Of a DNA stretch of 10,013 nt, positions 1-10,013 are shown in pieces. A model generated the notes under the pieces. That model did no database searches. It was not told where the DNA came from and worked only from the letters and a program-made list of their open reading frames with translations. This DNA comes from a virus (taxonomy: Duplodnaviria; Heunggongvirae; Uroviricota; Caudoviricetes), in the IMG/VR virus record IMGVR_UViG_2778261352_000004, positions 1 through 10,013 of that record; one strand, 5' to 3'. Each line of letters starts with the position of its first letter. Within the stretch, counting starts at the first letter, position 1. The translations under genes and the position numbers were made by a program.

Positions 1-2334
1 TCAGGTTGTCGCAGGGTCGTCACATTTTGGCAGCCAGTCGCCGTAGCTTTCCTCTTTCAGCGTCAGGTTGGTCTGTATCCCCTGTTTGGTATGGCGCTTC
101 TCGTAATTCAGCCCGTATTCCTTCAGCATCACCGGCAGCCCCAGCCCGAACATTTTCAGACTGAGTACATTCCGGTAGCCGTTTGCCTCCATGTAGGCCA
201 GATAGGCGTGATAGAGGTATTTACGGTAATTACGCGGGATGATACTGGCGTTCCCCATATACATGCCGCTGGTCTGCGGCAGGGTTTCCAGATAGCCGAT
301 AAAATCAAACATCGGGTCGGCATCCCGTTTGATGTTCAGTGCCTCGTCTGAGTTCTGCTGGGACTGAAGCAGTGACCGGGCGAGCATCGGGTCGCTGAAC
401 TTCTGCATCAGGTGACGCACGATGACCGCCAGCTCGCGGGTGATTTTGTCCTTAAGCTGCGGGTCGCGCTCCTGCGGGGCTATCTGTTCCGGGAAGTGAA
501 TAATCACCCGCCGGCGTGACACGCCGCCGCTGCGGTCGGTGAAGCGCATCGGGTTATTGTTCACGGCCAGAATCACCGCCGGGATGTGCGTGGAGTACGC
601 ATCCCGGTATTTCGGGTCAACGGACACCGCATCGCCGCCGGTGATGGCCTTGAGTCCGGCTCCGTCGCCGCTCCATTTTTCCTGGTCCGGCAGGCGTATC
701 AGTGAGAAGCCAGTTAACGCGGCACGTTCACGCGGGGATTCCAGCGTCTCGATGGTGGCCGACGTGGCGTTATCCTCCCCGGCCAGCAGGGTGGCTATTT
801 CGGCCATGATACTTTTGCCGCTGCCGCCGGGACCGGTCACCTCCAGAAAGAGCTGCCAGTCGTAGCGGTTTGCCAGCACCATAAACAGTGCGGCCAGAAT
901 CACGTCGCGTTTTTCCGCACGGCCACCGGCGGCACGGTCAAGCCAGCGCCAGAACGCGGGGGCGTGGGTTTCCAGCGTTTCCCCTTCCACCGGCGGGGTG
1001 AAATCCACATCGCACAGGGTGCGCATCCAGTGTGACGGACTGTGCGGGTGGAACGTGCCGTTCTGCGTGTCGAGCACGCCGTTACGAAAGCCAATCAGGC
1101 GGCGGGAGGGGGCTTCCTGCTGCGGAATAATCAGCTTCAGGGTGTCCACCACGGAGGCCACTTTCCCGGAGGAGAACGGCGCGCGCAGACGCTGAAACAG
1201 CCCGGCCACATCCCGGGCAAAGTCCTGTGGTGGCAGTACCTTCCAGACACCATTTTCATAGCGGGACAGAAGCTGGCCGTTGGCATCGACCGCGAGCGCC
1301 TCGCCGTAATGCTCATAGATACGCATGGCCTTTTCGCTGGTACTCATGGCGGAAAACTCCGCTTCGCTCATGGTGTCGAACGGGCTTTCAGCCGGTGGCC
1401 GGATGGCATCATAAATGGCCTTACGGGTGGCTTCCCCGCCGTACTGCGTGAAGGCATCATTCCAGTCACCGAAGACCGGCGGCAGGGCAACAACACCTTC
1501 ACACGCATCTGCGGCTGCGGCGGCTTTTTTCTGGCCGTCACCGCTGAGGTCACGGTCAGCAGCAAGGACAATCTGACAGGCCGGATGCTTCTGCCGGGCA
1601 AGGCTGGCCAGAGAAAGGAGGTTCACGGAAGAAAGCGCCACCATCACCGTTTCACCGGTCAGGTGATGCACGGTAAGTGCGGTCGCGTATCCCTCCGCTA
1701 TCCACAGACGTTTTCCGGCCTGATTCTGTCCTTCAAGGGTGTGACAGGTGCCCCTGACCTGTCCGCCTTTCAGGGTGCGCTTACGGCCGTCAGCACTGAT
1801 TAACTGAAGGTTAACCAGTTCGCCGCTGTCGTCATACAGTGGCACCACAAGGTCACCGGCGCACCAGCTCACGCCACCGGCTCTGTGTGTGCCGGTCAGC
1901 ATCCGGCATTCCCGGCCGGGAAAGCCCTTGCGGGTCAGGTAGGCGTTACCGGTTCCGGGACGGGTTTTTGCCATCAGGGTTTGTGCCAGTGCGGCGGCGT
2001 TCTTCCGGGCAGCGTCTGTTTCAGCGCCGGCGGCGGCCGTCACTGCCGGGTCAGCCGGGGGCAGGCTGCCGGTCACGGCAGCCACCTTTGCGGCCGCGTC
2101 GGACGGGGAAACACCAAACACCTTTTCAACCAGTTTCAGGCCGTCACCGGCACCACACTGATTGCAGTACCAGGTGCCGCGCCCCTCCCTGTCATCAAAA
2201 CGGAAGCGGTCACTCCCGCCACAGACCGGACAGGGCTGATGACGGTTCTTAAGCACCTGAATCCCCAGCGCCGGGAGAATACGCGGCCAGTGGCCGAGCG
2301 CATGGCTGACGGTGGCGGTTACGTTCATTTTCAT
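1..2334 (-). CDS. alpha: P4 alpha-type primase-helicase (origin-binding replication protein), 777 aa, complete
   Basis: N-terminal zinc-binding motif CPVCGG...WYCNQCG (nt 2155-2232); TOPRIM-like acidic residues in LWIAEGYATA...LAADRDLSGDG; Walker A GPGGSGKS (nt 811-834). SD AAGGAG 9 nt upstream of ATG at 2334; stop TGA at 1-3. Length equals recalled P4 alpha. Confidence 0.95.
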   Translation of the reverse strand: MKMNVTATVSHALGHWPRILPALGIQVLKNRHQPCPVCGGSDRFRFDDREGRGTWYCNQCGAGDGLKLVEKVFGVSPSDAAAKVAAVTGSLPPADPAVTAAAGAETDAARKNAAALAQTLMAKTRPGTGNAYLTRKGFPGRECRMLTGTHRAGGVSWCAGDLVVPLYDDSGELVNLQLISADGRKRTLKGGQVRGTCHTLEGQNQAGKRLWIAEGYATALTVHHLTGETVMVALSSVNLLSLASLARQKHPACQIVLAADRDLSGDGQKKAAAAADACEGVVALPPVFGDWNDAFTQYGGEATRKAIYDAIRPPAESPFDTMSEAEFSAMSTSEKAMRIYEHYGEALAVDANGQLLSRYENGVWKVLPPQDFARDVAGLFQRLRAPFSSGKVASVVDTLKLIIPQQEAPSRRLIGFRNGVLDTQNGTFHPHSPSHWMRTLCDVDFTPPVEGETLETHAPAFWRWLDRAAGGRAEKRDVILAALFMVLANRYDWQLFLEVTGPGGSGKSIMAEIATLLAGEDNATSATIETLESPRERAALTGFSLIRLPDQEKWSGDGAGLKAITGGDAVSVDPKYRDAYSTHIPAVILAVNNNPMRFTDRSGGVSRRRVIIHFPEQIAPQERDPQLKDKITRELAVIVRHLMQKFSDPMLARSLLQSQQNSDEALNIKRDADPMFDFIGYLETLPQTSGMYMGNASIIPRNYRKYLYHAYLAYMEANGYRNVLSLKMFGLGLPVMLKEYGLNYEKRHTKQGIQTNLTLKEESYGDWLPKCDDPATT

Positions 2335-2348
2335 GGTGTTGTTCTCCT

Positions 2349-2669
2349 TCAGTGCAGTACCGGCGCTTTTATGTGACGGGCACAGAGTTCATCCATCACA
2401 ACCAGCCCGAGAAAGGACAGCGACGGCGCGGCCTTCAGGGGGCCGGATTCCATTAAATCTTCCAGCAGGGCACAGGCTATCTGACGCCCTTTTTCCTCAC
2501 CGTGCTGGCGCAGATAAAAGCCTTCCAGCTCAGCGGCGATGGCCGCCTCCAGTGACTCAAGGGTAAGATGCGGGTAGCGGTGCTGACGTTCGCACACGGT
2601 CAGCCAGGCACAGGCGACAGCGCGACGGTAAAGGGCAGCGCGTAAGACGGGCGGTAAGGGTGTTTTCAT
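2349..2669 (-). CDS. conserved hypothetical protein, P4 orf106-like (106 aa), immediately upstream of alpha
   Basis: Strong SD GGGAGG 7 nt upstream of ATG; stop TGA overlaps the alpha SD region; same strand and operon as alpha. Size and position match recalled P4 orf106; no function inferable. Confidence 0.7.
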
Positions 2670-2750
2670 TTGCTTTCCTCCCTGTGACAGATGACTGCAT
2701 TCCGTGCCGGTTGCATTAACTGATAAGGCATATCTGCTTCTCCTGAAGAC

Positions 2751-2776
2751 GTGCGTATCCCTGCGCGAATACGCAC
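2751..2776. promoter_or_regulatory. 8-bp perfect inverted repeat (GTGCGTAT-N10-ATACGCAC) between the orf151-like and orf106-like genes; possible attenuator, terminator or protein-binding site
   Basis: Read directly: gtgcgtat 2751-2758, loop 2759-2768, atacgcac 2769-2776. On the plus strand it is followed by ATTTAATTTTT; on the coding (minus) strand there is no U-tract after it. Confidence 0.3.
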
Positions 2777-2804
2777 ATTTAATTTTTCGGGTGTCGTTTT
2801 TTAA

Positions 2805-3260
2805 TTACAGATAATTGCGGTAACTGTTATCCGGGGTGATTTCCGGGTCAGGCTCCGTGCGGGGAATTTCCCGCCATTCCCGCGCCACCGGTGCCGCCCG
2901 GCTGACCGGAACAGGGTCCTGCGGGTAAATATCCAGATATTTCTCCCGCCATTTCTGTAATTCCGGGTCTCCGGCCATTTCTTTCAGTACCGCATGCCGG
3001 TTTACGGGGCTGCGTTTAAACAGGTCAGGACGGTCACAGGTAAATTCCCGCAGAAAACGCCCCAGCGGGATGTCTGTGGTGCGCCCGTCGGCGAGGATAC
3101 GCACAAGGATACTGAATTTACGGCGGTACGGATTCCAGACAATGTCCGGGCAGCGGTACGGCATTTCCCACGGAATACCGTCTTCCAGAATGCCGACCAC
3201 GGCCACATCGGGAAAACCGGCAGAACGGTAAATCTCACCGGGCTGGGGAAAATCAAACAT
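2805..3260 (-). CDS. conserved hypothetical protein, P4 orf151-like (151 aa)
   Basis: ATG at 3260-3258 overlaps the last codons of the upstream 95-aa gene (stop TGA 3255-3253); stop TAA at 2807-2805. Same strand as alpha operon; size matches recalled P4 orf151. Confidence 0.7.
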   Translation of the reverse strand: MFDFPQPGEIYRSAGFPDVAVVGILEDGIPWEMPYRCPDIVWNPYRRKFSILVRILADGRTTDIPLGRFLREFTCDRPDLFKRSPVNRHAVLKEMAGDPELQKWREKYLDIYPQDPVPVSRAAPVAREWREIPRTEPDPEITPDNSYRNYL

Positions 3261-3540
3261 GCGTCCTGTCTCCCCGGTCTTTCTGCTGGGCGAGAAAATC
3301 GCGGCACAGGCCTTTGGCTTTCAGCTCATTCAGCACAAAATCAATATCTTCATTCAGGTAGCTGAAAATATGCGGAATGTAGAGCTGATGCAGGCCGGAG
3401 AGTTCACGGTGAATCAAATCACCCCCAACAAACTGGGATACGGCGCTGGCGCGGTTGAGCTTATGGTAAGCCTCAATGCTGAGGTGTTCACGGGCGTCAT
3501 GACGCGCTGAGACGGTCTGAGGGGCTTTTTTATTACGCAC
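3253..3540 (-). CDS. 95-aa left-operon protein; candidate epsilon-like (helper derepression) gene by position and size only
   Basis: GTG start at 3540-3538 preceded by strong SD GGAGGTG with about 6-nt spacing; in-frame ATGs further upstream lack any SD. Start overlaps the stop of the kil-position ORF and stop overlaps the orf151-like start. No motif recognised. Confidence 0.45.
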
Positions 3541-3730
3541 GGGACACCTCCACCACCGGCAGACGGGCAGCAAGGGAGAGCACATAGTCACGGACAAGGG
3601 AACGGCGGGCGCTGCGTTCATCACCGGCGACGGTGCGAAGCATACAGATACGGGGATGACGGTCTGCGCGACGGACAGCCGCAAACACAAAGACAAATTC
3701 AGGGTGTGAGGGGGTAAGGGTCGTAGCCAT
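3533..3730 (-). CDS. 65-aa first gene of the left (immunity-controlled) operon; kil-position small protein
   Basis: ATG at 3730-3728 with strong SD GGAGG 7 nt upstream (3742-3738); stop TAA 3535-3533. The same frame stays open upstream to 4168, so a longer nested form cannot be excluded. Confidence 0.45.
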
Positions 3731-3802
3731 AAGGCAACCTCCGATAACAGCGTAAATGACGCTATCGCCGGAGTTCTCACGCTCGATGGCGATAGCCCAG
3801 AC

Positions 3803-3831
3803 GGGGGTGAGAATACCGGCGTTATCGGAAA
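3803..3831 (-). promoter_or_regulatory. antisense-type element in the immunity leader, complementary to two sense repeats (3995-4025 and 3741-3780)
   Basis: Minus-sense RNA here reads UUUCCGAUAACGCCGGUAUUCUCACCCCC. Its CCGAUAAC and UUCUCAC blocks are exact complements of GUUAUCGG and GUGAGAA, which occur in both flanking repeats; 13 of 15 contiguous nt pair with the copy abutting the kil-position SD. Confidence 0.3.
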
Positions 3832-3969
3832 CCGGCCAGCCCGGAGGCTGCCCCGCCTGAGCTACCATTGACTCAGTGGCATAACATGCGATTGCGAACA
3901 GGATCATACCTGCACGGCAAACCACACGCCACACCATAATCTGGTGCTCTGTGGCGTTGATTGCGACAC

Positions 3970-3991
3970 AAAAAAAGACGCATGGCGCGTC
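3970..3991 (-). terminator. Rho-independent terminator in the immunity leader (hairpin GACGC-GCCAU-GCGUC followed by U7)
   Basis: On the minus strand: 5-bp GC-rich stem (plus 3977-3981 / 3987-3991) immediately followed by seven T (plus-strand A-run 3970-3976). Lies about 130 nt downstream of the vis stop. Confidence 0.55.
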
Positions 3992-4047
3992 ATATGTCGC
4001 CGATAACATACTCGGGTTCTCACGCCCGGCTGCCGATTTTGCGGCAG
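3970..4047 (-). ncRNA. candidate small structured RNA (about 78 nt, promoter-to-terminator unit), possibly a P4 CI-like immunity RNA or leader
   Basis: Candidate sigma70 promoter just upstream (4055-4084), then a 7-bp hairpin GCUGCCG-N6-CGGCAGC (4029-4048), further short helices, and the intrinsic terminator at 3970-3991. Contains the sense repeat GUGAGAAC...GUUAUCGG. Confidence 0.3.
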
Positions 4048-4054
4048 CGGAAAA

Positions 4055-4084
4055 ACTATATCCGCAAATGCCGGAAAAAGGCAA
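4055..4084 (-). promoter_or_regulatory. candidate sigma70 promoter (P_LE-like): -35 TTGCCT, 18-bp spacer, -10 TATAGT, reading leftward
   Basis: Read directly on the minus strand: TTGCCT at plus 4084-4079, TATAGT at plus 4060-4055. Motif match only; no expression data. Confidence 0.3.
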
Positions 4085-4119
4085 GCCAGAAAAAGGGAGT
4101 TTTTGCAGAGCGGGCATCA

Positions 4120-4386
4120 TCATGCGTCGTACCCCCGTTTGCGTCCGGCAATGCGTCCGGCCATCCATGCGGTGACTTCAGAGTGCAGCCAGGCCACATT
4201 TTTACCGCCAAGACTCACCTGCGGCGGAAATTCCCCCTTACGGATGAGTTCATAGATGGTCGAGCGTGACAGGCCGCACAGGTGCATCACTTCCGGCAGA
4301 CGTAAAAAACGCTCCTGCGTGATGTCCGGCAGCGGCATCAGTGGCGTCACAGGGGCGGGAGACGGGGAAGAAAAAACAGCTTGCAT
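4120..4386 (-). CDS. vis: Vis/AlpA-family DNA-binding regulator (excisionase-like), 88 aa; P4 orf88/vis equivalent
   Basis: Protein carries the AlpA-family signature region FLRLPEV...[17 protein letters not shown]...[21 protein letters not shown] 5 nt upstream of ATG at 4386; stop TGA 4122-4120. Confidence 0.9.
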
Positions 4387-4488
4387 CGGGCTACCTCGTT
4401 AATGTCCATACAGCACCGGATAAGTCCGTCCGGCTTCGGGTAGCGCTTTATTTTGTGAATATTTTTGGCAGACGCAACAGGGGGGATT

Positions 4489-4506
4489 TGTTCCGGCAGC
4501 CTTACA
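4489..4506. promoter_or_regulatory. TGT-N12-ACA dyad upstream of vis; candidate Delta/Ogr activator site of the leftward late promoter (P_LL-like)
   Basis: Read directly: TGT 4489-4491, 12-nt spacer, ACA 4504-4506; a TGT-N11-ACA near-copy lies at 4512-4528. The consensus is recalled from P2/P4 late promoters. Confidence 0.4.
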
Positions 4507-4664
4507 ATGGCTGTGCATTTTTTGTACATCAGCGCCAGATAGCTTTAAAACGCTCTGGAAGGAGCTGGAAAAAATTATAGTGAAATACAAATTGTTTTTT
4601 CTTATTTATTTCAGTGAATTAATAAAAATAAAAAGTAATAAACAGCACAAAAAGCCCATCAACG

Positions 4665-4769
4665 GGTGAACAGTGGTGAACAGACGGTGAACAGTCATTA
4701 CTGCGATTGTTCACCCTTTAACTTATTGTATTACTTATCTTTTTTCTTATGGTGAACAGAGGTGAACAG
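4665..4769. repeat. origin-like iteron cluster: five direct GGTGAACAG copies plus one inverted TGTTCACC, inside an AT-rich tract (candidate ori, alpha-binding type I iterons)
   Basis: Copies at 4665-4673, 4675-4683, 4686-4694, 4751-4759 and 4761-4769, with inverted TGTTCACC at 4708-4715. Flanked by very AT-rich sequence from about 4575 to 4800. The octamer TGTTCACC is recalled as the P4 alpha-binding iteron. Confidence 0.7.
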
Positions 4770-4847
4770 TAAAATATAAAAAAACAAACAGTAAGCCGGT
4801 TTTTCCTGCGACCTTTTCCTGGCTTGCCGGTCTGAGGATGAGTCTCC

Positions 4848-4865
4848 TGTGTCAGGGCTGGCACA
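4848..4865. promoter_or_regulatory. TGT-N12-ACA dyad about 75-90 nt upstream of sid; candidate Delta/Ogr-activated P_sid promoter element
   Basis: Read directly: TGT 4848-4850, 12-nt spacer, ACA 4863-4865, placed where a -55-centred activator site for a start near 4910 would sit. Confidence 0.45.
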
Positions 4866-4937
4866 TCTGCAATGCGTCGTGTTGTTGTCCGGTGTACGTC
4901 ACAATTTTCTTAACCTGAAGTGACGAGGAGCCGGAAA

Positions 4938-5672
4938 ATGTCTGACAACACCATCCCTGAATATCTGCAACCCGCACTGGCACAACTGGAAAAGGCCAGA
5001 GTCGCTCATCTTGAGAACGCCCGCCTGATGGATGAGACCGTCACGGCCATTGAACGGGCAGAGCAGGAAAAAAATGCGCTGACGCAGGCCGACGGAAACG
5101 ATGATGACGACTGGCGCACGGCCTTTCGTGCAGCCGGTGGTGTCCTGAGCGACGAGCTGAAACAGCGCCACATTGAGCGCGTGGCACGCCGGGAGCTGGT
5201 ACAGGAATATGACAATCTGGCCGTGGTGCTGAATTTTGAACGTGAACGCCTGAAAGGGGCGTGTGACAGCACGGCCACCGCCTACCGGAAGGCACATCAT
5301 CATCTTCTGAGTCTGTATGCAGAGCATGAGCTGGAACACGCCCTGAATGAAACCTGTGAGGCGCTTGTCCGGGCAATGCATCTGAGCATCCTGGTACAGG
5401 AAAATCCGCTCGCCAACACCACCGGCCATCAGGGCTATGTCGCACCGGAAAAGGCTGTCATGCAGCAGGTGAAATCATCGCTGGAACAGAAAATTAAACA
5501 GATGCAAATCAGCCTCACCGGTGAGCCGGTTCTCCGGCTGACCGGACTGTCAGCGGCAACACTTCCGCACATGGATTATGAGGTGGCAGGCACACCGGCA
5601 CAGCGCAAGGTGTGGCAGGACAAAATAGACCAGCAGGGAGCAGTGCTTAAGGCCAGAGGACTGCTGTCATGA
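4938..5672 (+). CDS. sid: Sid, capsid size-determination (external scaffold) protein, 244 aa
   Basis: ATG at 4938 with SD GAGGAG 8 nt upstream; the GTG at 4920 in the ORF track has no SD. N-terminus MSDNTIPEYLQPALAQLEK; stop TGA overlaps the delta start in an ATGA junction (5669-5672). Length matches recalled P4 Sid. Confidence 0.92.
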   Translation: MSDNTIPEYLQPALAQLEKARVAHLENARLMDETVTAIERAEQEKNALTQADGNDDDDWRTAFRAAGGVLSDELKQRHIERVARRELVQEYDNLAVVLNFERERLKGACDSTATAYRKAHHHLLSLYAEHELEHALNETCEALVRAMHLSILVQENPLANTTGHQGYVAPEKAVMQQVKSSLEQKIKQMQISLTGEPVLRLTGLSAATLPHMDYEVAGTPAQRKVWQDKIDQQGAVLKARGLLS

Positions 5673-6169
5673 TTTACTGCCCGTCGTGTGGACATGTTGC
5701 TCACACCCGTCGCGCACATTTCATGGACGATGGCACCAAGATAATGATTGCACAGTGCCGGAATATTTATTGCTCTGCGACATTTGAAGCGAGTGAAAGC
5801 TTTTTCTCTGACTGTAAAGATTCAGGAATGGAATACATTTCAGGCAAACAGAGATACCGCGATTCACTGACGTCAGCCTCCGGCAGTATGAAACGCCCGA
5901 AAAGAATGCTTGTTACCGGATATTGTTGTCGGAGATGTAAAGGCCTTGCACTGTCAAGAACATCGCGACGTCTGTCTCAGGAAGTCACCGAGCGTTTTTA
6001 TGTGTGCACGGATCCGGGCTGTGGTCTGGTGTTTAAAACGCTTCAGACCATCACCCGCTTCATTGTCCGCCCGGTCACGCCGGACGAACTGGCAGAACGC
6101 CTGCATGAAAAACAGGAACTGCCGCCAGTACGGTTAAAAACACAATCATATTCGCTGCGTCTGGAATGA
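5669..6169 (+). CDS. delta: Delta, Ogr-family zinc-finger late-gene transcriptional activator (tandem Ogr-like domains), 166 aa
   Basis: Two Cys-cluster halves (CPSCG...CRNIYC and CCRRC...CTDPGC) typical of duplicated Ogr-like zinc fingers; translationally coupled to sid; length matches recalled P4 Delta. Confidence 0.92.
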   Translation: MIYCPSCGHVAHTRRAHFMDDGTKIMIAQCRNIYCSATFEASESFFSDCKDSGMEYISGKQRYRDSLTSASGSMKRPKRMLVTGYCCRRCKGLALSRTSRRLSQEVTERFYVCTDPGCGLVFKTLQTITRFIVRPVTPDELAERLHEKQELPPVRLKTQSYSLRLE

Positions 6170-6242
6170 GGGCTGCCGGTTAACACCGGCCGTCGCCGCA
6201 CACCGTATTTTTATTCTTCAGCATGATGAGAAAGAGATAACG

Positions 6243-6815
6243 ATGGAAAGCACAGCCTTACAGCAGGCCTTTGACACCTGTCAGAATAACAAAGCAGCAT
6301 GGCTGCAACGCAAAAATGAGCTGGCAGCGGCCGAACAGGAATATCTGCGGCTTCTGTCAGGAGAAGGCAGAAACGTCAGTCGCCTGGACGAATTACGCAA
6401 TATTATCGAAGTCAGAAAATGGCAGGTGAATCAGGCCGCCGGTCGTTATATTCGTTCGCATGAAGCCGTTCAGCACATCAGCATCCGCGACCGGCTGAAT
6501 GATTTTATGCAGCAGCACGGCACAGCACTGGCGGCGGCACTGGCACCGGAGCTGATGGGCTACAGTGAGCTGACGGCCATTGCCCGAAACTGTGCCATAC
6601 AGCGTGCCACAGATGCCCTGCGTGAAGCCCTTCTGTCCTGGCTTGCGAAGGGTGAAAAAATTAATTATTCCGTACAGGATAGCGACATTTTAACGGCCAT
6701 CGGATTCAGGCCTGACGCGGCTTCGGTGGATGACAGCCGTGAAAAATTCACTCCTGCGCAGAACATGATTTTTTCGCGTAAAAGTGCGCAACTGGCATCA
6801 CGTCAGTCTGTGTAA
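6243..6815 (+). CDS. psu: Psu, polarity suppression protein (Rho antagonist / capsid decoration), 190 aa
   Basis: Position after delta and about 165 bp before cos; length matches recalled P4 Psu; N-terminus MESTALQQAFDTCQNNKAAWLQRKNELAAAEQEY. Confidence 0.9.
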   Translation: MESTALQQAFDTCQNNKAAWLQRKNELAAAEQEYLRLLSGEGRNVSRLDELRNIIEVRKWQVNQAAGRYIRSHEAVQHISIRDRLNDFMQQHGTALAAALAPELMGYSELTAIARNCAIQRATDALREALLSWLAKGEKINYSVQDSDILTAIGFRPDAASVDDSREKFTPAQNMIFSRKSAQLASRQSV

Positions 6816-6845
6816 AATTCCCCGAAAATCCGCCCGTTTTTACTG

Positions 6846-6890
6846 AAAAAAGCCATGCATCGATAAGGTGCATGGCTTTGCATGCGTTTT
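6846..6890 (+). terminator. candidate intrinsic terminator of the sid-delta-psu operon (9-bp stem AGCCATGCA/TGCATGGCT, 9-nt loop, T-rich tail)
   Basis: Stem 6851-6859 / 6869-6877, followed by TTGCATGCGTTTT; an A-run precedes it, so it may act in both directions. Confidence 0.45.
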
Positions 6891-6979
6891 CCTGCCTCAT
6901 TTTCTGCAGACCGCGCCATTCCCGGCGCAGCCTGAGCGTGACTGTGCAACTGCATTAAAACCGCCCTGCAAAGCGGGCG

Positions 6980-6998
6980 GGCGAGGCGGGGAAAGCAC
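6980..6998. other. cos site: 19-nt P2/P4-type cohesive-end sequence GGCGAGGCGGGGAAAGCAC, uncleaved
   Basis: Exact 19-mer read at 6980-6998, preceded by inverted repeat CCGCCC-N8-GGGCGG (6961-6980). Matches the cohesive end as I recall it for P2/186/P4; spacing from the psu stop fits P4. Confidence 0.75.
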
Positions 6999-7102
6999 TG
7001 CGCGTTAGACTTAACTAAAGTGATTGATTCAGATGCTAAAAACGCGTAGAAAAAGGAATGCAACTACCCCTATCAGTGCTCCTCTTGAAGGATAAATAAA
7101 AA

Positions 7103-8788
7103 ATGAGCATTATTCACGTAAATCAAATTGGCAGTAAAGTTAAGGCATTATTTGCTGATAAAATTGATAACAGTGATCTCAATCATAAAGATAAAGAAAT
7201 ACAAACTAAAATATTGACTCGTTGTCTTTCTGCTTACGCTGTTTTTTGTATTGGAGATACCTCGATAGATGAGGCTGCGTCAGCAGTTGTTGATGGTGCC
7301 GATGATAATGGTATCGATGCAATTCATTATTCTCCTTCAAGTAAGAGGATGATTATTGTTCAATCTAAATGGAAAAAGGATGGAACAGGAGAACCTGATA
7401 ATGGTGATTTGAGGAAGTTTAAAGATGGTGTATTAGACCTCATTAATCTTGAGCTTGATAAATTTAATAACAAAGTAAATCTAAAAAAACAGATGATTGA
7501 AACAGCTTTGGGTGAGTTTGATACAAAATTTGATCTTGTTTTAATTCACACAGGTGCGAATACTCTAAGCAAACATAACCAACAAGTAATGGATTCAATT
7601 CTTAATGAATTAAACGATGCCGGTGATGGAACCAGTGAGGATGTTGTTAGTTTCCACCATCTGAATCAAGCGATAATTCATAGTGGTCTTGCCTCTGGTA
7701 TGGATGGGGAACCAATCGATTTGGAAATCGGTCTTTCACAATGGGGAAAAATTGAAGAGCCACATCAAGGTTTTTTCGGGATTGTAGCTGGTGAGGAGGT
7801 TGCAAATTGGTGGTTAAAAAAAGGGAAAAGACTATTTGCCAAAAATATTAGGCAAATGTTAGGTGCTACTGAAGTTAATGATGAGGTTAAGAGAACAATT
7901 GAGGAACAACCTGAGAATTTTTGGTATTACAATAATGGTATAACTATTGTTGCTGAATCTATAAAAAAATCGATGGTTGGTGGAAATAGTAGAGATATTG
8001 GTTCGTTTAAAGCGAGTAATATAAGCATTGTTAATGGTGCTCAGACTGTAAGCGTAATTGGTAAATATTCGCAAGAAGGAGGGGCAAATCTTGCTAAATT
8101 GCGTTTACCTATCCGATTGATTTCATTAGAAGGTGCGCCAGAAGACTTTGGTGCAAATGTGACAAAAACTAATAACCGTCAAAATAGAATCGAAAGCAGA
8201 GACTTTGTTTCCTTAGATGATGAGCAAATCCGGTTAAAAAGAGAACTATCCTTGGAGGGGATTGAGTATAATATAGTAAGGAGTGAGAATGTTAAGACAT
8301 CGGCTAGCATAATCGATTTATCTGAAGCGACCATTGCATTGGCTTGTGCGTCTACGCAGGTGGGTTTAGCAGTTCAAGCGAAAAGAGAAATAGGTCGATT
8401 CTATGACAATCTTAATAAAGCGCCATATAAAACAATTTTCAACCCGCAAACCAATGGTATTTATTTACGAAATACGGTATTTGCATTACGAAAAATAGAT
8501 GAAATAATTGGCGAAATGATTGCGAACATACCTAAAAAATCTGGTAAAGAGTATGGTGTTCTTGTTCATGGGAATAGGATGTTGGCATTTTTGGTTTTTA
8601 GAAAGTTGATGATACATAAAATCGCAAATAACTTTGATTTTGATATGTCTTCAATTGATTGGTATGAAACCACATCAGATATGCTTGAGAAATTGATGTC
8701 GGAAATTGAAGAGAATTATAAGGATAAGTTTCTTGCTACTTTATTTAAGAACGCAAGTATTTGTAAGGCTATATCCGAGAAAATATAA
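7103..8788 (+). CDS. hotspot cargo: 561-aa protein with N-terminal Mrr-type PD-(D/E)xK nuclease-like motif and AIPR-like (abortive infection) features; candidate single-gene anti-phage defence protein
   Basis: Single long ORF in a strongly AT-rich block flanked by GC-rich satellite DNA. N-terminal GADDNGIDAIHY...MIIVQSKW (D-G-I-D ... Q-x-K; Q87/K89 at 7361-7369). Also WYYNNGIT (7922-7945) and IVNGAQT (from 8027), which I recall as AIPR-type motifs. SD-like AAGGA upstream; stop TAA 8786-8788. Family assignment is from memory of motif patterns, not a search. Confidence 0.55.
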   Translation: MSIIHVNQIGSKVKALFADKIDNSDLNHKDKEIQTKILTRCLSAYAVFCIGDTSIDEAASAVVDGADDNGIDAIHYSPSSKRMIIVQSKWKKDGTGEPDNGDLRKFKDGVLDLINLELDKFNNKVNLKKQMIETALGEFDTKFDLVLIHTGANTLSKHNQQVMDSILNELNDAGDGTSEDVVSFHHLNQAIIHSGLASGMDGEPIDLEIGLSQWGKIEEPHQGFFGIVAGEEVANWWLKKGKRLFAKNIRQMLGATEVNDEVKRTIEEQPENFWYYNNGITIVAESIKKSMVGGNSRDIGSFKASNISIVNGAQTVSVIGKYSQEGGANLAKLRLPIRLISLEGAPEDFGANVTKTNNRQNRIESRDFVSLDDEQIRLKRELSLEGIEYNIVRSENVKTSASIIDLSEATIALACASTQVGLAVQAKREIGRFYDNLNKAPYKTIFNPQTNGIYLRNTVFALRKIDEIIGEMIANIPKKSGKEYGVLVHGNRMLAFLVFRKLMIHKIANNFDFDMSSIDWYETTSDMLEKLMSEIEENYKDKFLATLFKNASICKAISEKI

Positions 8789-8810
8789 TCTGGCACTCCG
8801 TTATATTAAG

Positions 8811-8832
8811 AAATGCCGCTTATGCGGCATTT
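8811..8832. terminator. bidirectional hairpin between convergent cargo and integrase genes (AAATGCCGC-TTAT-GCGGCATTT)
   Basis: 9-bp perfect stem with 4-nt loop, 8811-8832, between the cargo stop (8788) and the integrase stop (8841); A/T-rich flanks on both sides. Confidence 0.5.
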
Positions 8833-8840
8833 GTCTATTA

Positions 8841-10013
8841 TCAGAAAAATGAATAGATATAATTACTATACCATTGCATCATAGAGCGTCTTTTCTCTAA
8901 ATACTGAGCATGGTTATATGTTCCACGAATACTATTTTTATCAACATGTGCCAATTGCATTTCAATCCATGAGCTATCAAACCCTTGTTCGTGCAATATT
9001 GTCGACATGGTATGTCGAAAACCGTGGCCTGTAGCACGGCCTTTGTAGCCAAGTAACTCAATTACCTGTGAAACACTTTCTTTTGAGATCGGCTTGCTAC
9101 GATTGTTCCTTCCAATAAAAATGTATGGGTAATGTCCTGTAATAGGTTTGAGTTGTTTAAATAGGGTAATTACCTGTGTAGATAAGGGAACAATGTGTGG
9201 TCTACGCATTTTCATTCTTTCTGCTGGTATTTCCCATATACCCTTTTCCAGGTCTACTTCATTCCATGTGGCAAAGCGCATTTCCTGAGTTCTTATGCCA
9301 GTTAACATGACTATCTTTGTCGCATTTTTAGTGATGATGCTTCCGGTGTATGCTTCAAGATCTTGAATAAAATAAGGCAACTCTTCGGCAGATAAAAATG
9401 GGTGGTGTTTTTGTTTAGGAACGGTCAGAGCGATAGCTAAATCAGGTGCGGGGTTGTATTCAGCTCGGCCAGTTATGATTGCATAACGAAAGACCTCACC
9501 GCATCTTTGGCGCACTTTTCTGGTCTTCTCTAGTGCTCCTCGTTTCTCTATTCGTCGCAACACTTCAAGCAGTTCTAATGGTTTGATTTCACTGATAGGA
9601 CGTTTACCAATGAACGGGAAGACATCTTGCTCGAATGTCTTAATGATTTCTTCTCGATAGGCTACAGTCCAGCGGTCAGCTTTGTTGGTATGCCATTCTC
9701 GACATATTGCTTCGAAAGAATTTTCTATTGATAGCTTTTGAGCGAGTCTTAAAGCTTTGCGTTCCTCTACCGGGTCAATGCCATTAGCAACCTGCTTACG
9801 GGCGATATCACGCTTCTCACGTGCTTCTGCGAGGCTTACTAAATCGTAGCTGCCAAATGACATTAACCGCGCTTTCCCTGCAAACCGGAAACGGAAACGC
9901 CAGCCTTTCGAGCCATCGGGATTGATAAGCAATGACAGACCTTGTCCATCGTTCAATGTGTATGGTTTGTCTTGTGGTTTTGCGCGTTTGATCTGTATAT
10001 CGGTTAGAGCCAT
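8841..10013 (-). CDS. int: tyrosine site-specific integrase (P4-type, N-terminal arm-binding domain), 390 aa, complete
   Basis: ATG at the last three window bases (10013-10011); N-terminus MALTDIQIKRAKPQDKPYTLNDGQGLSL typical of P4-family integrases. Catalytic-type motifs LTGIRTQE, HGFRHT, LAHVD and RGTYNHAQY; stop TGA 8843-8841. Any SD or promoter lies outside the window. Confidence 0.9.
   Translation of the reverse strand: MALTDIQIKRAKPQDKPYTLNDGQGLSLLINPDGSKGWRFRFRFAGKARLMSFGSYDLVSLAEAREKRDIARKQVANGIDPVEERKALRLAQKLSIENSFEAICREWHTNKADRWTVAYREEIIKTFEQDVFPFIGKRPISEIKPLELLEVLRRIEKRGALEKTRKVRQRCGEVFRYAIITGRAEYNPAPDLAIALTVPKQKHHPFLSAEELPYFIQDLEAYTGSIITKNATKIVMLTGIRTQEMRFATWNEVDLEKGIWEIPAERMKMRRPHIVPLSTQVITLFKQLKPITGHYPYIFIGRNNRSKPISKESVSQVIELLGYKGRATGHGFRHTMSTILHEQGFDSSWIEMQLAHVDKNSIRGTYNHAQYLEKRRSMMQWYSNYIYSFF

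Follow-up and report, generated by a model that had tools for sequence, protein, structure and literature searches.

The region between the vis gene and the first gene of the left operon in the Caudoviricetes record IMGVR_UViG_2778261352_000004 (positions 1 to 10,013 of the record; this whole stretch of 10,013 nucleotides (nt) is called the window below) raises the question of what kind of immunity is encoded by a set of short blocks that recur there in sense and antisense orientation, and of which RNA in the region acts in trans. An initial annotation, made from the letters alone, had described a promoter-like motif, a structured segment, a terminator, two copies of a pair of sequence blocks and a middle segment complementary to both. 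The region is, with a probability of about 90%, the classical antisense-RNA immunity module of phage P4, which maintains lysogeny, as carried by a P4-like satellite prophage of Escherichia coli, and it would work as it does in P4. This reading is directly supported by the anatomy of the module, its homology to P4, its membership of three covariance-model families, the unpaired state of the two recognition blocks a′ and b′ in the antisense RNA, and the co-variation of the four intermolecular helices that these blocks form. The mechanism is one that is already known; what is new is the allele, not the mechanism.

Phage P4 aligns with the 951-nt region 4450-3500 over its full length at 94.2% identity. 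Furthermore, three Rfam covariance models match the minus strand of this region in full length and above their gathering scores, namely C4 (RF01695) at 3872-3785 (76.2 bits against a gathering score of 45; model positions 1-87 of 87; E = 6e-14), isrK (RF01394) at 4048-3971 (71.2 bits against 50), and c4-a1b1 (RF03163), upstream of the C4 RNA, at 4061-4009 (50.8 bits against 46.7). The covariance-model search that had been proposed as a check in the initial annotation thus returned all three families, and, together with the nucleotide identity, it bears out the likeness drawn there to the P4 CI RNA and its seqA-seqB-seqC arrangement. IsrK-like RNAs have already been equated with seqA, and C4 with the P4 CI RNA (PMC3632133, PMC4825925). 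The view that the trans-acting RNA could not be told from sequence has to be given up, since homology to P4 CI/C4 identifies it as the middle segment. All parts of the module lie on the minus strand, as follows.

4055-4084, minus strand: P_LE-type constitutive promoter TTGCCT-18 nt-TATAGT, within the eta open reading frame (base-for-base match to P4; predicted start at about 4048)
3970-4048, minus strand: leader RNA, the seqA region of P4 (Rfam isrK and c4-a1b1; covariance models, fold and helix covariation)
4017-4023, minus strand: target block a1, GUGAGAA, in the loop of leader hairpin 2 (fold; pairing with a′ across types)
4000-4007, minus strand: target block b1, GUUAUCGG (repeat search; covariation with b′)
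3970-3991, minus strand: intrinsic terminator, t1 of P4, GACGCGCCATGCGTC followed by T7 (6-bp GC-rich stem at 3991-3977, T-run at 3976-3970)
3873-3969, minus strand: variable spacer of 97 nt from t1 to the CI RNA (9-nt deletion relative to P4, clustered substitutions)
3785-3872, minus strand: C4/CI antisense RNA, the trans-acting immunity factor (Rfam C4, fold, internal-helix covariation)
3821-3828, minus strand: recognition block b′, CCGAUAAC, in the 10-nt loop of C4 hairpin 2 (P4 has CCUGUGAA)
3807-3813, minus strand: recognition block a′, UUCUCAC, in the 8-nt single-stranded junction before the 3′ arm of the basal stem (P4 allele)
3774-3780, minus strand: target block a2, GUGAGAA, the 5′ part of seqC (a′-a2 helix)
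3761-3768, minus strand: segment X, GCGAUAGC, in the a2-b2 spacer (inverted repeat I4; complementary to the 3′ arm of the C4 basal stem at 3796-3789)
3738-3748, minus strand: target block b2, GUUAUCGG (3748-3741), overlapping the Shine-Dalgarno sequence GGAGG (3742-3738) of kil (b′-b2 helix)
3533-3730, minus strand: kil, 65 amino acids (aa), Icd-like, and first among the genes translated on P_LE transcripts (NCBIfam phage_ICD_like, residues 12-59, E = 1.6e-21)
3533-4123, minus strand: eta open reading frame (ORF), 196 aa, sharing the frame of kil and spanning the promoter, leader, terminator and CI RNA (PGAP annotation, open frame, indels in multiples of 3)

The segment that carries the recognition blocks has the architecture of a C4 RNA. 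The 88-nt C4 region folds with a minimum free energy (MFE) of −47.2 kcal/mol (z = −5.6), its MFE structure being the same as the centroid, into a 16-bp basal stem that encloses two hairpins and leaves the recognition sequences unpaired. The predicted mature CI runs from about 3866 to 3787 (80 nt) and ends in a GCCA 3′ tail after the basal stem; the P4 CI is reportedly 79 nt long. The acceptor-like stem together with an RCC[A/C] tail is consistent with processing of CI by RNase P, and both CI and c4 are documented as RNase P substrates (PMC5499578). Maturation of the window CI by RNase P is accordingly suggested by a sequence signature read in the light of P4 and P1 genetics, and would proceed as in those phages.

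At the DNA level, block 2, GTTATCGG, is present at 4007-4000 and again at 3748-3741, and its complement in the middle segment, CCGATAAC at 3828-3821, matches it at 8/8 positions. Block 1, GTGAGAAC, is present at 4023-4016 and 3780-3773, and TTCTCAC at 3813-3807 is complementary to it at 7/8 positions, the eighth base being non-complementary. The positions given for the block pairs in the initial annotation (within 3995-4025 and 3741-3780) are therefore right, and the complementarity it had claimed for the middle segment is complete for block 2 and stops one base short for block 1. GTTATCGG or its complement occurs exactly three times in the window of 10 kb, all within the element, as against 0.28 expected, and three occurrences were reached in 1 of 200 shuffles. 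Block 1 alone, with one mismatch allowed, was found eight times in the window against 6.2 expected, which is not above chance; it is regarded as real because of homology and covariation, and not because of its own count. A chance origin of the repeats was considered as well and is ruled out by covariation.

Upstream of the antisense RNA, the promoter-like motif at 4084-4055 proved to be the sole sigma-70-like site in 3500-4500 (0.4 expected), and P4 likewise has a constitutive promoter that lies within eta (PMC10111431). The structured segment, previously put at about 78 nt, is the 79-nt leader (4048-3970; MFE −30.4 kcal/mol, z = −2.2). From 5′ to 3′ it consists of hairpin 1, hairpin 2 with a1 in its loop, the single-stranded b1, which follows 9 nt past a1, shortly ahead of the terminator, and t1, whose GC-rich stem and T-run lie exactly where an intrinsic terminator had been proposed. 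Two 5′ hairpins and a Rho-independent terminator, as in the isrK family, are thus present. In the window allele, b1 is partly sequestered by an extra leader hairpin, GUAUGUU/GACAUAU (3992-4011, minus strand), which is apparently absent from P4 as judged by eye, from the unfolded sequence.

Downstream of the antisense RNA, a2 starts 4 nt beyond the Rfam C4 match, and the last two G's of b2 are the first two of the Shine-Dalgarno sequence, which lies 8 nt upstream of the kil ATG at 3730, in keeping with the overlap noticed at the outset. With G·U pairs included, the C4 loop makes 12/12 pairs with UGUUAUCGGAGG, so that the duplex covers the ribosome-binding site directly. The two-block target is therefore present in two copies in one transcription unit, with the downstream copy at the ribosome-binding site of the first gene. 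That first gene, proposed earlier as a 65-aa ORF, is real, as indicated by its phage_ICD_like match, and its sequence is nearly identical to that of P4. Locally, b2 and part of the Shine-Dalgarno sequence fall within a hairpin at 3739-3773 (minus strand; −23.9 kcal/mol, z = −3.0), and allele-specific structures at b1 and b2 might tune the accessibility of the targets.

Conservation of the pairing among relatives, the test by which the initial annotation stood or fell, was examined in a collection gathered by a Kil protein search and by two IMG/VR DNA patterns that leave the recognition blocks free. The Kil-protein loci (at least five) came from five genera, namely Kosakonia, Enterobacter, Phytobacter, Kluyvera, and Mixta, and matches to C4 and isrK were found in P4 and in all five genomic loci. 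All counts of modules and types given here are counts among the matches listed; these comprise 172 complete modules, in which blocks were read at fixed offsets ±3 nt, with the same rule applied to cognate and non-cognate comparisons. All four target blocks were found to be perfectly paired in 161 of the 172 modules, and at least 46 a′/b′ combinations were present, drawn from at least six a′ and at least 25 b′ alleles. Non-cognate b′ blocks, by comparison, made 8/8 pairs with b1 or b2 in 3-5% of comparisons, and non-cognate a′ blocks made 7/7 pairs in at most 1.2%.

Covariation was counted in alignment A2, with one sequence for each of the 46 types. The a1-a′ helix was paired in 99.7% of cells, with changes on both sides at 6/7 pairs, and the b1-b′ helix in 97.0%, with both-sided changes at 7/8 pairs; for the helices with the downstream target, the values were 100% and 6/7 pairs (a′-a2) and 98.1% and 5/8 pairs (b′-b2). 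When the partner was slid by 1-3 columns as a control, only 36-47% of cells were paired, and the observed covariation score was reached in 0 of 500 shuffles. RNAalifold, run unprompted on the contiguous transcript, recovered a1-a′ and b1-b′. Thus, the blocks are not only conserved among relatives but co-vary in four helices, an outcome clearly favourable to the initial annotation. The cognate CI was also the best predicted binder for 37 of the 46 target sets and among the top three for 45 of them. The scaffold around the blocks is kept as well: three internal C4 helices are 100% paired in the 46 types, two of them (the basal stem and hairpin 1) with both-sided changes; the RCC[A/C] tail past the basal stem is present in 46/46 types; the isrK helices are 99-100% paired; the t1 stem is 100% paired and its T-run is kept; and GGAG directly follows b2 in 45/46 types.

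A further helix, between segment X and the 3′ arm of the C4 basal stem, was predicted by RNAalifold (A2 columns 301-308 with 270-277). It is 98.4% paired in the 46 types, with both-sided changes at 5/8 pairs and a covariation score reached in 0 of 500 shuffles, this covariation resting on about three haplotypes. The X helix is not colinear with the a′-a2/b′-b2 duplex, which points to an alternative fold of the precursor or another role; it may represent such a fold or be related to the atypical terminator t4 of P4. The local a2-b2 hairpin, which would compete with the X helix, finds no support as a conserved helix in fixed columns, where it was 69% paired and no better than shuffles, possibly because its register shifts between types. 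An attenuator-like model, in which 1:2/3:4 pairing alternates with 2:3 pairing, is speculation at this stage.

From the P4 system, the following mechanism can be proposed. Transcription from P_LE would cover the leader and CI RNA as well as the genes for replication (the operon of kil, epsilon, orf151, DUF5375, and the alpha primase), and a CI/C4 RNA of about 80 nt (3866-3787) would be excised from read-through transcripts, with RNase P setting its 5′ end at the base of the tRNA-acceptor-like stem. Blocks b′ and a′ of CI would then pair with the two copies of the two-block target on nascent P_LE transcripts. Pairing at a1/b1 would increase termination at t1 and so make CI synthesis self-limiting; at a2/b2, the duplex would reach into the Shine-Dalgarno sequence and block translation of kil, and the untranslated kil RNA would then be terminated at Rho-dependent and other sites, leaving the replication genes off. 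Transcripts from the upstream late promoter (P_LL) would escape immunity because they are translated throughout as Eta, in coupling with vis. The specific roles of the P4 terminators t1, t4, and timm are said to have been worked out by Briani et al. in 2000 and Forti et al. in 1999. For P4, CI is described as an antisense RNA directed at seqA and seqC whose precursor is a transcript that is not translated (PMC4825925), and the eta/kil logic has been set out as well (PMC10111431). The effects on termination, and immunity itself, are thus ascribed to the window module by analogy with P4 and P1 genetics.

Detailed comparison with P4 showed where the two modules part. In the pairwise alignment, the promoter, a1, a′, and a2 are identical to those of P4; only isolated differences are seen in the hairpins of the leader, in the terminator and the C4 scaffold, and in nearly the whole of kil. 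The differences cluster instead in the t1-CI spacer and at the three b sites: b1 and b2 are each GUUAUCGG in the window and UUCACAGG in P4, and b′ is CCGAUAAC in the window and CCUGUGAA in P4. Within CI, block b is changed at 5/8 positions, with matching, mutually compensatory changes in both targets. A specificity group defined by identical a and b blocks in CI and both targets would therefore not place the window with P4, the a blocks being the same and the b blocks different. The window CI makes 4/8 pairs with the P4 b targets, and its duplexes are predicted at −30.7 and −32.3 kcal/mol on its own seqA and seqC, as against −22.3 and −25.3 on the P4 targets. Because b differs in all three copies while a is shared, and by analogy with phiR73, which is reportedly heteroimmune to P4, and with the c4 RNAs of P1 and P7 (PMC12197685), the element is predicted to be heteroimmune, or at most weakly cross-immune, to P4.

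Several points weigh against pressing this reading too far. Some partial cross-immunity with P4 is conceivable because block a is identical; the P4 CI makes 6/8 pairs (with G·U) on the window b targets, and the non-cognate duplexes between window and P4 are still predicted at about −22 to −25 kcal/mol. The DNA patterns used in the survey fix parts of C4, so type frequencies among the matches listed are not prevalences, and one sequence per type is not one independent event. Accumulation of the RNAs and activity of the prophage are likewise predictions from the sequence.

It is against this background that other explanations have to be judged. The module might confer P4 immunity by the P4 mechanism, the shared block a being sufficient and the difference in b a matter of neutral drift; the identity of a1, a′, and a2 with P4 would fit, as would the observation that, for pairs of types sharing block a only, predicted duplexes are about 4-6 kcal/mol better than for pairs sharing nothing. 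Three concerted 8-nt replacements on a 326-nt module that is otherwise about 90% identical are not what drift produces, however, and substitutions on close backbones are concentrated in the 45 block columns (for example, 15/44 against 11/281 for locus L023, and 21/44 against 13/281 for L095). Moreover, the 25 b alleles, each complementary in triplicate, imply selection on b pairing, and in P1 and P7 small differences in c4 are enough for heteroimmunity (PMC12197685). Drift in b under a shared P4 immunity is thus unlikely. A different proposal is that the 79-nt, t1-terminated IsrK-like leader is itself the functional trans RNA, either as a sponge or decoy for CI or as an activator like IsrK of Gifsy-1. 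The leader does have its own promoter and terminator and a full-length isrK match of 71 bits; the long isoform of IsrK in Gifsy-1 is a target in trans of the short one (PMC4825925), P4-like prophages carry IsrK-like elements that were required in a transposon-directed insertion-site sequencing (TraDIS) screen of Salmonella Typhi (PMC3632133), and a leader with the same blocks as seqC would compete with seqC for CI. The leader blocks are nevertheless of the same sense as a2 and b2 and cannot pair with the region of the ribosome-binding site, which leaves CI as the only possible partner. In P4 genetics the immunity factor is CI (PMC4825925, PMC10111431), and in the window the processing signature and the strongest structural signal are located on the C4 scaffold and not on the leader (z = −5.6 against −2.2). 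The leader as trans-acting factor is therefore improbable, and any activity of it could be an added role rather than an alternative to CI.

That the region is merely protein-coding, with the repeats as peptide motifs, can hardly be maintained. A long conserved ORF does span the region (196 aa, and once named 'cI repressor protein' in P4), and PGAP, PHROGs, and GenBank records of P4 annotate a protein there. The repeats are in sense and antisense orientation, however, and not direct, and conservation operates at the level of base pairing, with G·U pairs and both-sided changes; the sole curated protein-domain match, phage_ICD_like, covers the last 65 aa, PHROG families matching the upstream part as well. 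A protein-motif origin of the repeats is ruled out by covariation. Eta is nonetheless real and coexists with the RNA genes (PMC10111431).

Indeed, the antisense-RNA module of P4 type described here is embedded in a translated frame. In the window, no stop interrupts the kil frame as it is followed upstream past C4, the terminator, the leader, and the promoter, until an ATG is reached where the stop codon of vis overlaps it. Of 169 modules listed, 147 have this frame free of stops over 300 nt or more upstream of the kil ATG, the other two frames being open to that extent in 15 and 4, and the distance from leader to C4 is a multiple of 3 in 168 of 172, with nine distinct lengths. The spacer between t1 and CI is the most variable part of the module (leader-to-C4 distances of 124 to 214 nt in the relatives listed), and the 9-nt deletion that it carries in the window relative to P4 preserves the eta frame. 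In P4, eta encloses the constitutive promoter, seqA, and CI, Kil is a truncated form made from P_LE transcripts, and eta is translated only from upstream P_LL transcripts, its translation preventing termination (PMC10111431). The frame data from the window agree with this description. The term 'leader' used in the initial annotation was therefore apt for the RNA parts, and the implied purely non-coding nature was not, since they lie within an ORF in frame with kil.

The protein annotations of this region mirror its double nature. For an identical prophage, PGAP/RefSeq gives one 196-aa 'host cell division inhibitor Icd-like protein' (L003, 9328-9918, equal to window 4123-3533), in which the Icd-like domain is confined to the last 65 aa, that is, to Kil; no C4 or IsrK RNA genes are listed in the RefSeq/PGAP annotation of L003 9328-9918. 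Old GenBank records of P4 show a 137-aa ORF labelled 'cI gene product'. The PHROG 'transcriptional regulator' families phrog_995, 821, and 3960 match eta residues 76-145, overlapping the C4 RNA; what unites these families may in part be a conserved RNA gene that is read as protein in one frame, or, alternatively, the matches may reflect the 'Bro network' relationship (PMC10111431).

With respect to known systems, P4 itself is the closest, with the same Rfam trio and the same order of vis, P_LE, leader/seqA, t1, CI, seqC, kil/eta, epsilon, orf151, and alpha; the window differs from it in its b allele, in the 9-nt in-frame deletion in the spacer, and in an AbiU/AIPR-like cargo gene. Retronphage phiR73, a P4-like satellite at selC, is reportedly heteroimmune to P4, in a study by Sabbattini et al. 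from 1996. The likeness to phiR73 extends to the same idea of heteroimmunity by changes in seqA, seqB, and seqC and to integration at selC, an immunity region identical to that of the window being located at tRNA-Sec in E. coli 504237. Unlike phiR73, the window contains no retron reverse transcriptase. Such reverse transcriptases were found at four of the fetched loci (L110, L146, L158, and L162), none of them on a module of the window type.

The immI region of P1 and P7 shares the C4 and c4-a1b1 families and the placement of a processed antisense RNA between two two-block targets, the downstream one covering the ribosome-binding site of an Icd-like first gene (the c4-icd-ant operon in P1), and small changes in its blocks give heteroimmunity (PMC12197685). 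It differs in that an antirepressor is regulated in a plasmid-prophage, whereas in the window the module would control the replication operon of an integrated satellite; in the phage search with the 951-nt region, no nucleotide match to P1 or P7 was obtained. The IsrK/STnc1160-orf45-anrP system of Gifsy-1 resembles the window, whose leader matches the isrK model in full length, and in Gifsy-1, too, a processed C4-like RNA lies downstream of IsrK (PMC4825925). There, however, orf45, and hence the antirepressor, is translated when activated by the short IsrK, whereas the regulator in the window would be, by analogy with P4, a C4-like repressor. Hfq binding and trans-activation are known for Salmonella IsrK only (PMC4825925). 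Finally, phiKO2 and related Klebsiella phages, which belong to the N15/phiKO2 group with its anti-immunity CB RNA, give partial nucleotide matches at 77-82% identity over the part with the leader and C4, the phiKO2-type matches overlying annotations such as 'transcriptional repressor', 'terminator', and 'Icd-like'. These phages differ from the window in being linear plasmid-prophages, in having an antirepressor under the control of the RNA, and in aligning to only about 22% of the query.

The diversity of the blocks in the survey suggests a wider pattern. On the E. coli backbone closest to the window, the two blocks vary independently of each other: at locus L092 the change relative to the window is confined to block a, in each of its three copies, and in P4, L013, and L023 it is confined to block b. 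The b allele CCAAUAAG was found combined with four a alleles. Copies of the two blocks are interleaved (a1 b1 ... b′ a′ ... a2 b2), which means that simple recombination cannot easily reassort a and b. A tentative interpretation, to which slightly less than an even chance is given, is that of a modular 'address code' of RNA immunity, in which block a (7 nt) and block b (8 nt), each in triplicate, reassort on near-identical backbones within the translated eta. In the open literature searched, which covers few subscription journals, no survey of such specificity diversity was found, and the diversity may be partly known already, for example from phiR73 and P4.

A few modules in the collection depart from the regular pattern. 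L033 and L041 carry the b′ block CCTATGAC without cognate targets, and their b2 has lost 2 nt. In the hybrid L082, a1 is of GTGAGAA type, and a′ and a2 are of TTCCTAC type; L073 has one mismatch in b2, and the Mixta locus (L008) makes 7/8 pairs at b2. All five may be elements that have decayed, are defective in immunity, or have recombined recently. With the best place per record counted, one isolate genome in the set had two loci (L045 and L092), and these are of different types.

The element that carries the module has the gene set and gene order of a P4-like satellite, with Pfam matches to Psu, Ogr_Delta, Phage_AlpA, Derepression, DUF5375, primase/D5, and integrase. On one flank are the integrase, the AbiU/AIPR-like cargo gene, psu, delta, and an ORF in the position of sid, for which no Pfam match was obtained; on the other, facing the int-cargo-psu-delta-sid side, are vis, kil/eta, epsilon ('Derepression'), orf151, DUF5375, and the alpha primase. 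The vis gene (4120-4386, minus strand) encodes an AlpA-family excisionase/regulator of 88 aa (Pfam Phage_AlpA, E = 7e-21) and corresponds to ORF88 of P4, and its stop codon overlaps the eta start (ATGA, 4123-4120). The cargo gene, located between psu and int at 7103-8788 (plus strand), encodes a 561-aa AIPR/AbiU-like protein (Pfam AIPR, 1.4e-32; PADLOC AbiU, 1.2e-33) at a site that is a known hotspot for defence genes in P4-like satellites. A prophage of E. coli 504237 adjoining tRNA-Sec is 100% identical to the window over the 951-nt immunity region and yet has a SIR2-family gene at the cargo site, which indicates that cargo and immunity module are swapped independently.

Relatives of the 951-nt region are present in 1049 of 5426 complete E. 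coli genomes, and at least 123 complete genomes of the species, ATCC 8739 among them, have the identical C4 allele. A C4-like RNA of the family is present in 878 of the 5426 genomes, with at most three copies per genome and two copies borne on plasmids; E. coli genomes with several copies constitute a natural test of heteroimmunity among co-resident satellites.

Overall, the feature in the window is fully explained by the P4 system, and each of its parts now has coordinates, in a region that RefSeq shows only as a 196-aa 'Icd-like' coding sequence even though the C4 allele occurs in at least 123 complete E. coli genomes. Because specificity can be read from two short blocks, heteroimmunity groups could be predicted from sequence, rules of satellite co-residence could be tested over thousands of genomes, and a set of orthogonal RNA repressors could be drawn from the system. 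Further work might be most rewarding on the combinatorial range of specificities that sits inside a translated frame. If the address code is true, many mutually heteroimmune satellite lineages would be kept by diversifying or frequency-dependent selection, and each new specificity would need a concerted change at three sites, for example by short-patch conversion among the copies or by repeated triple substitution.

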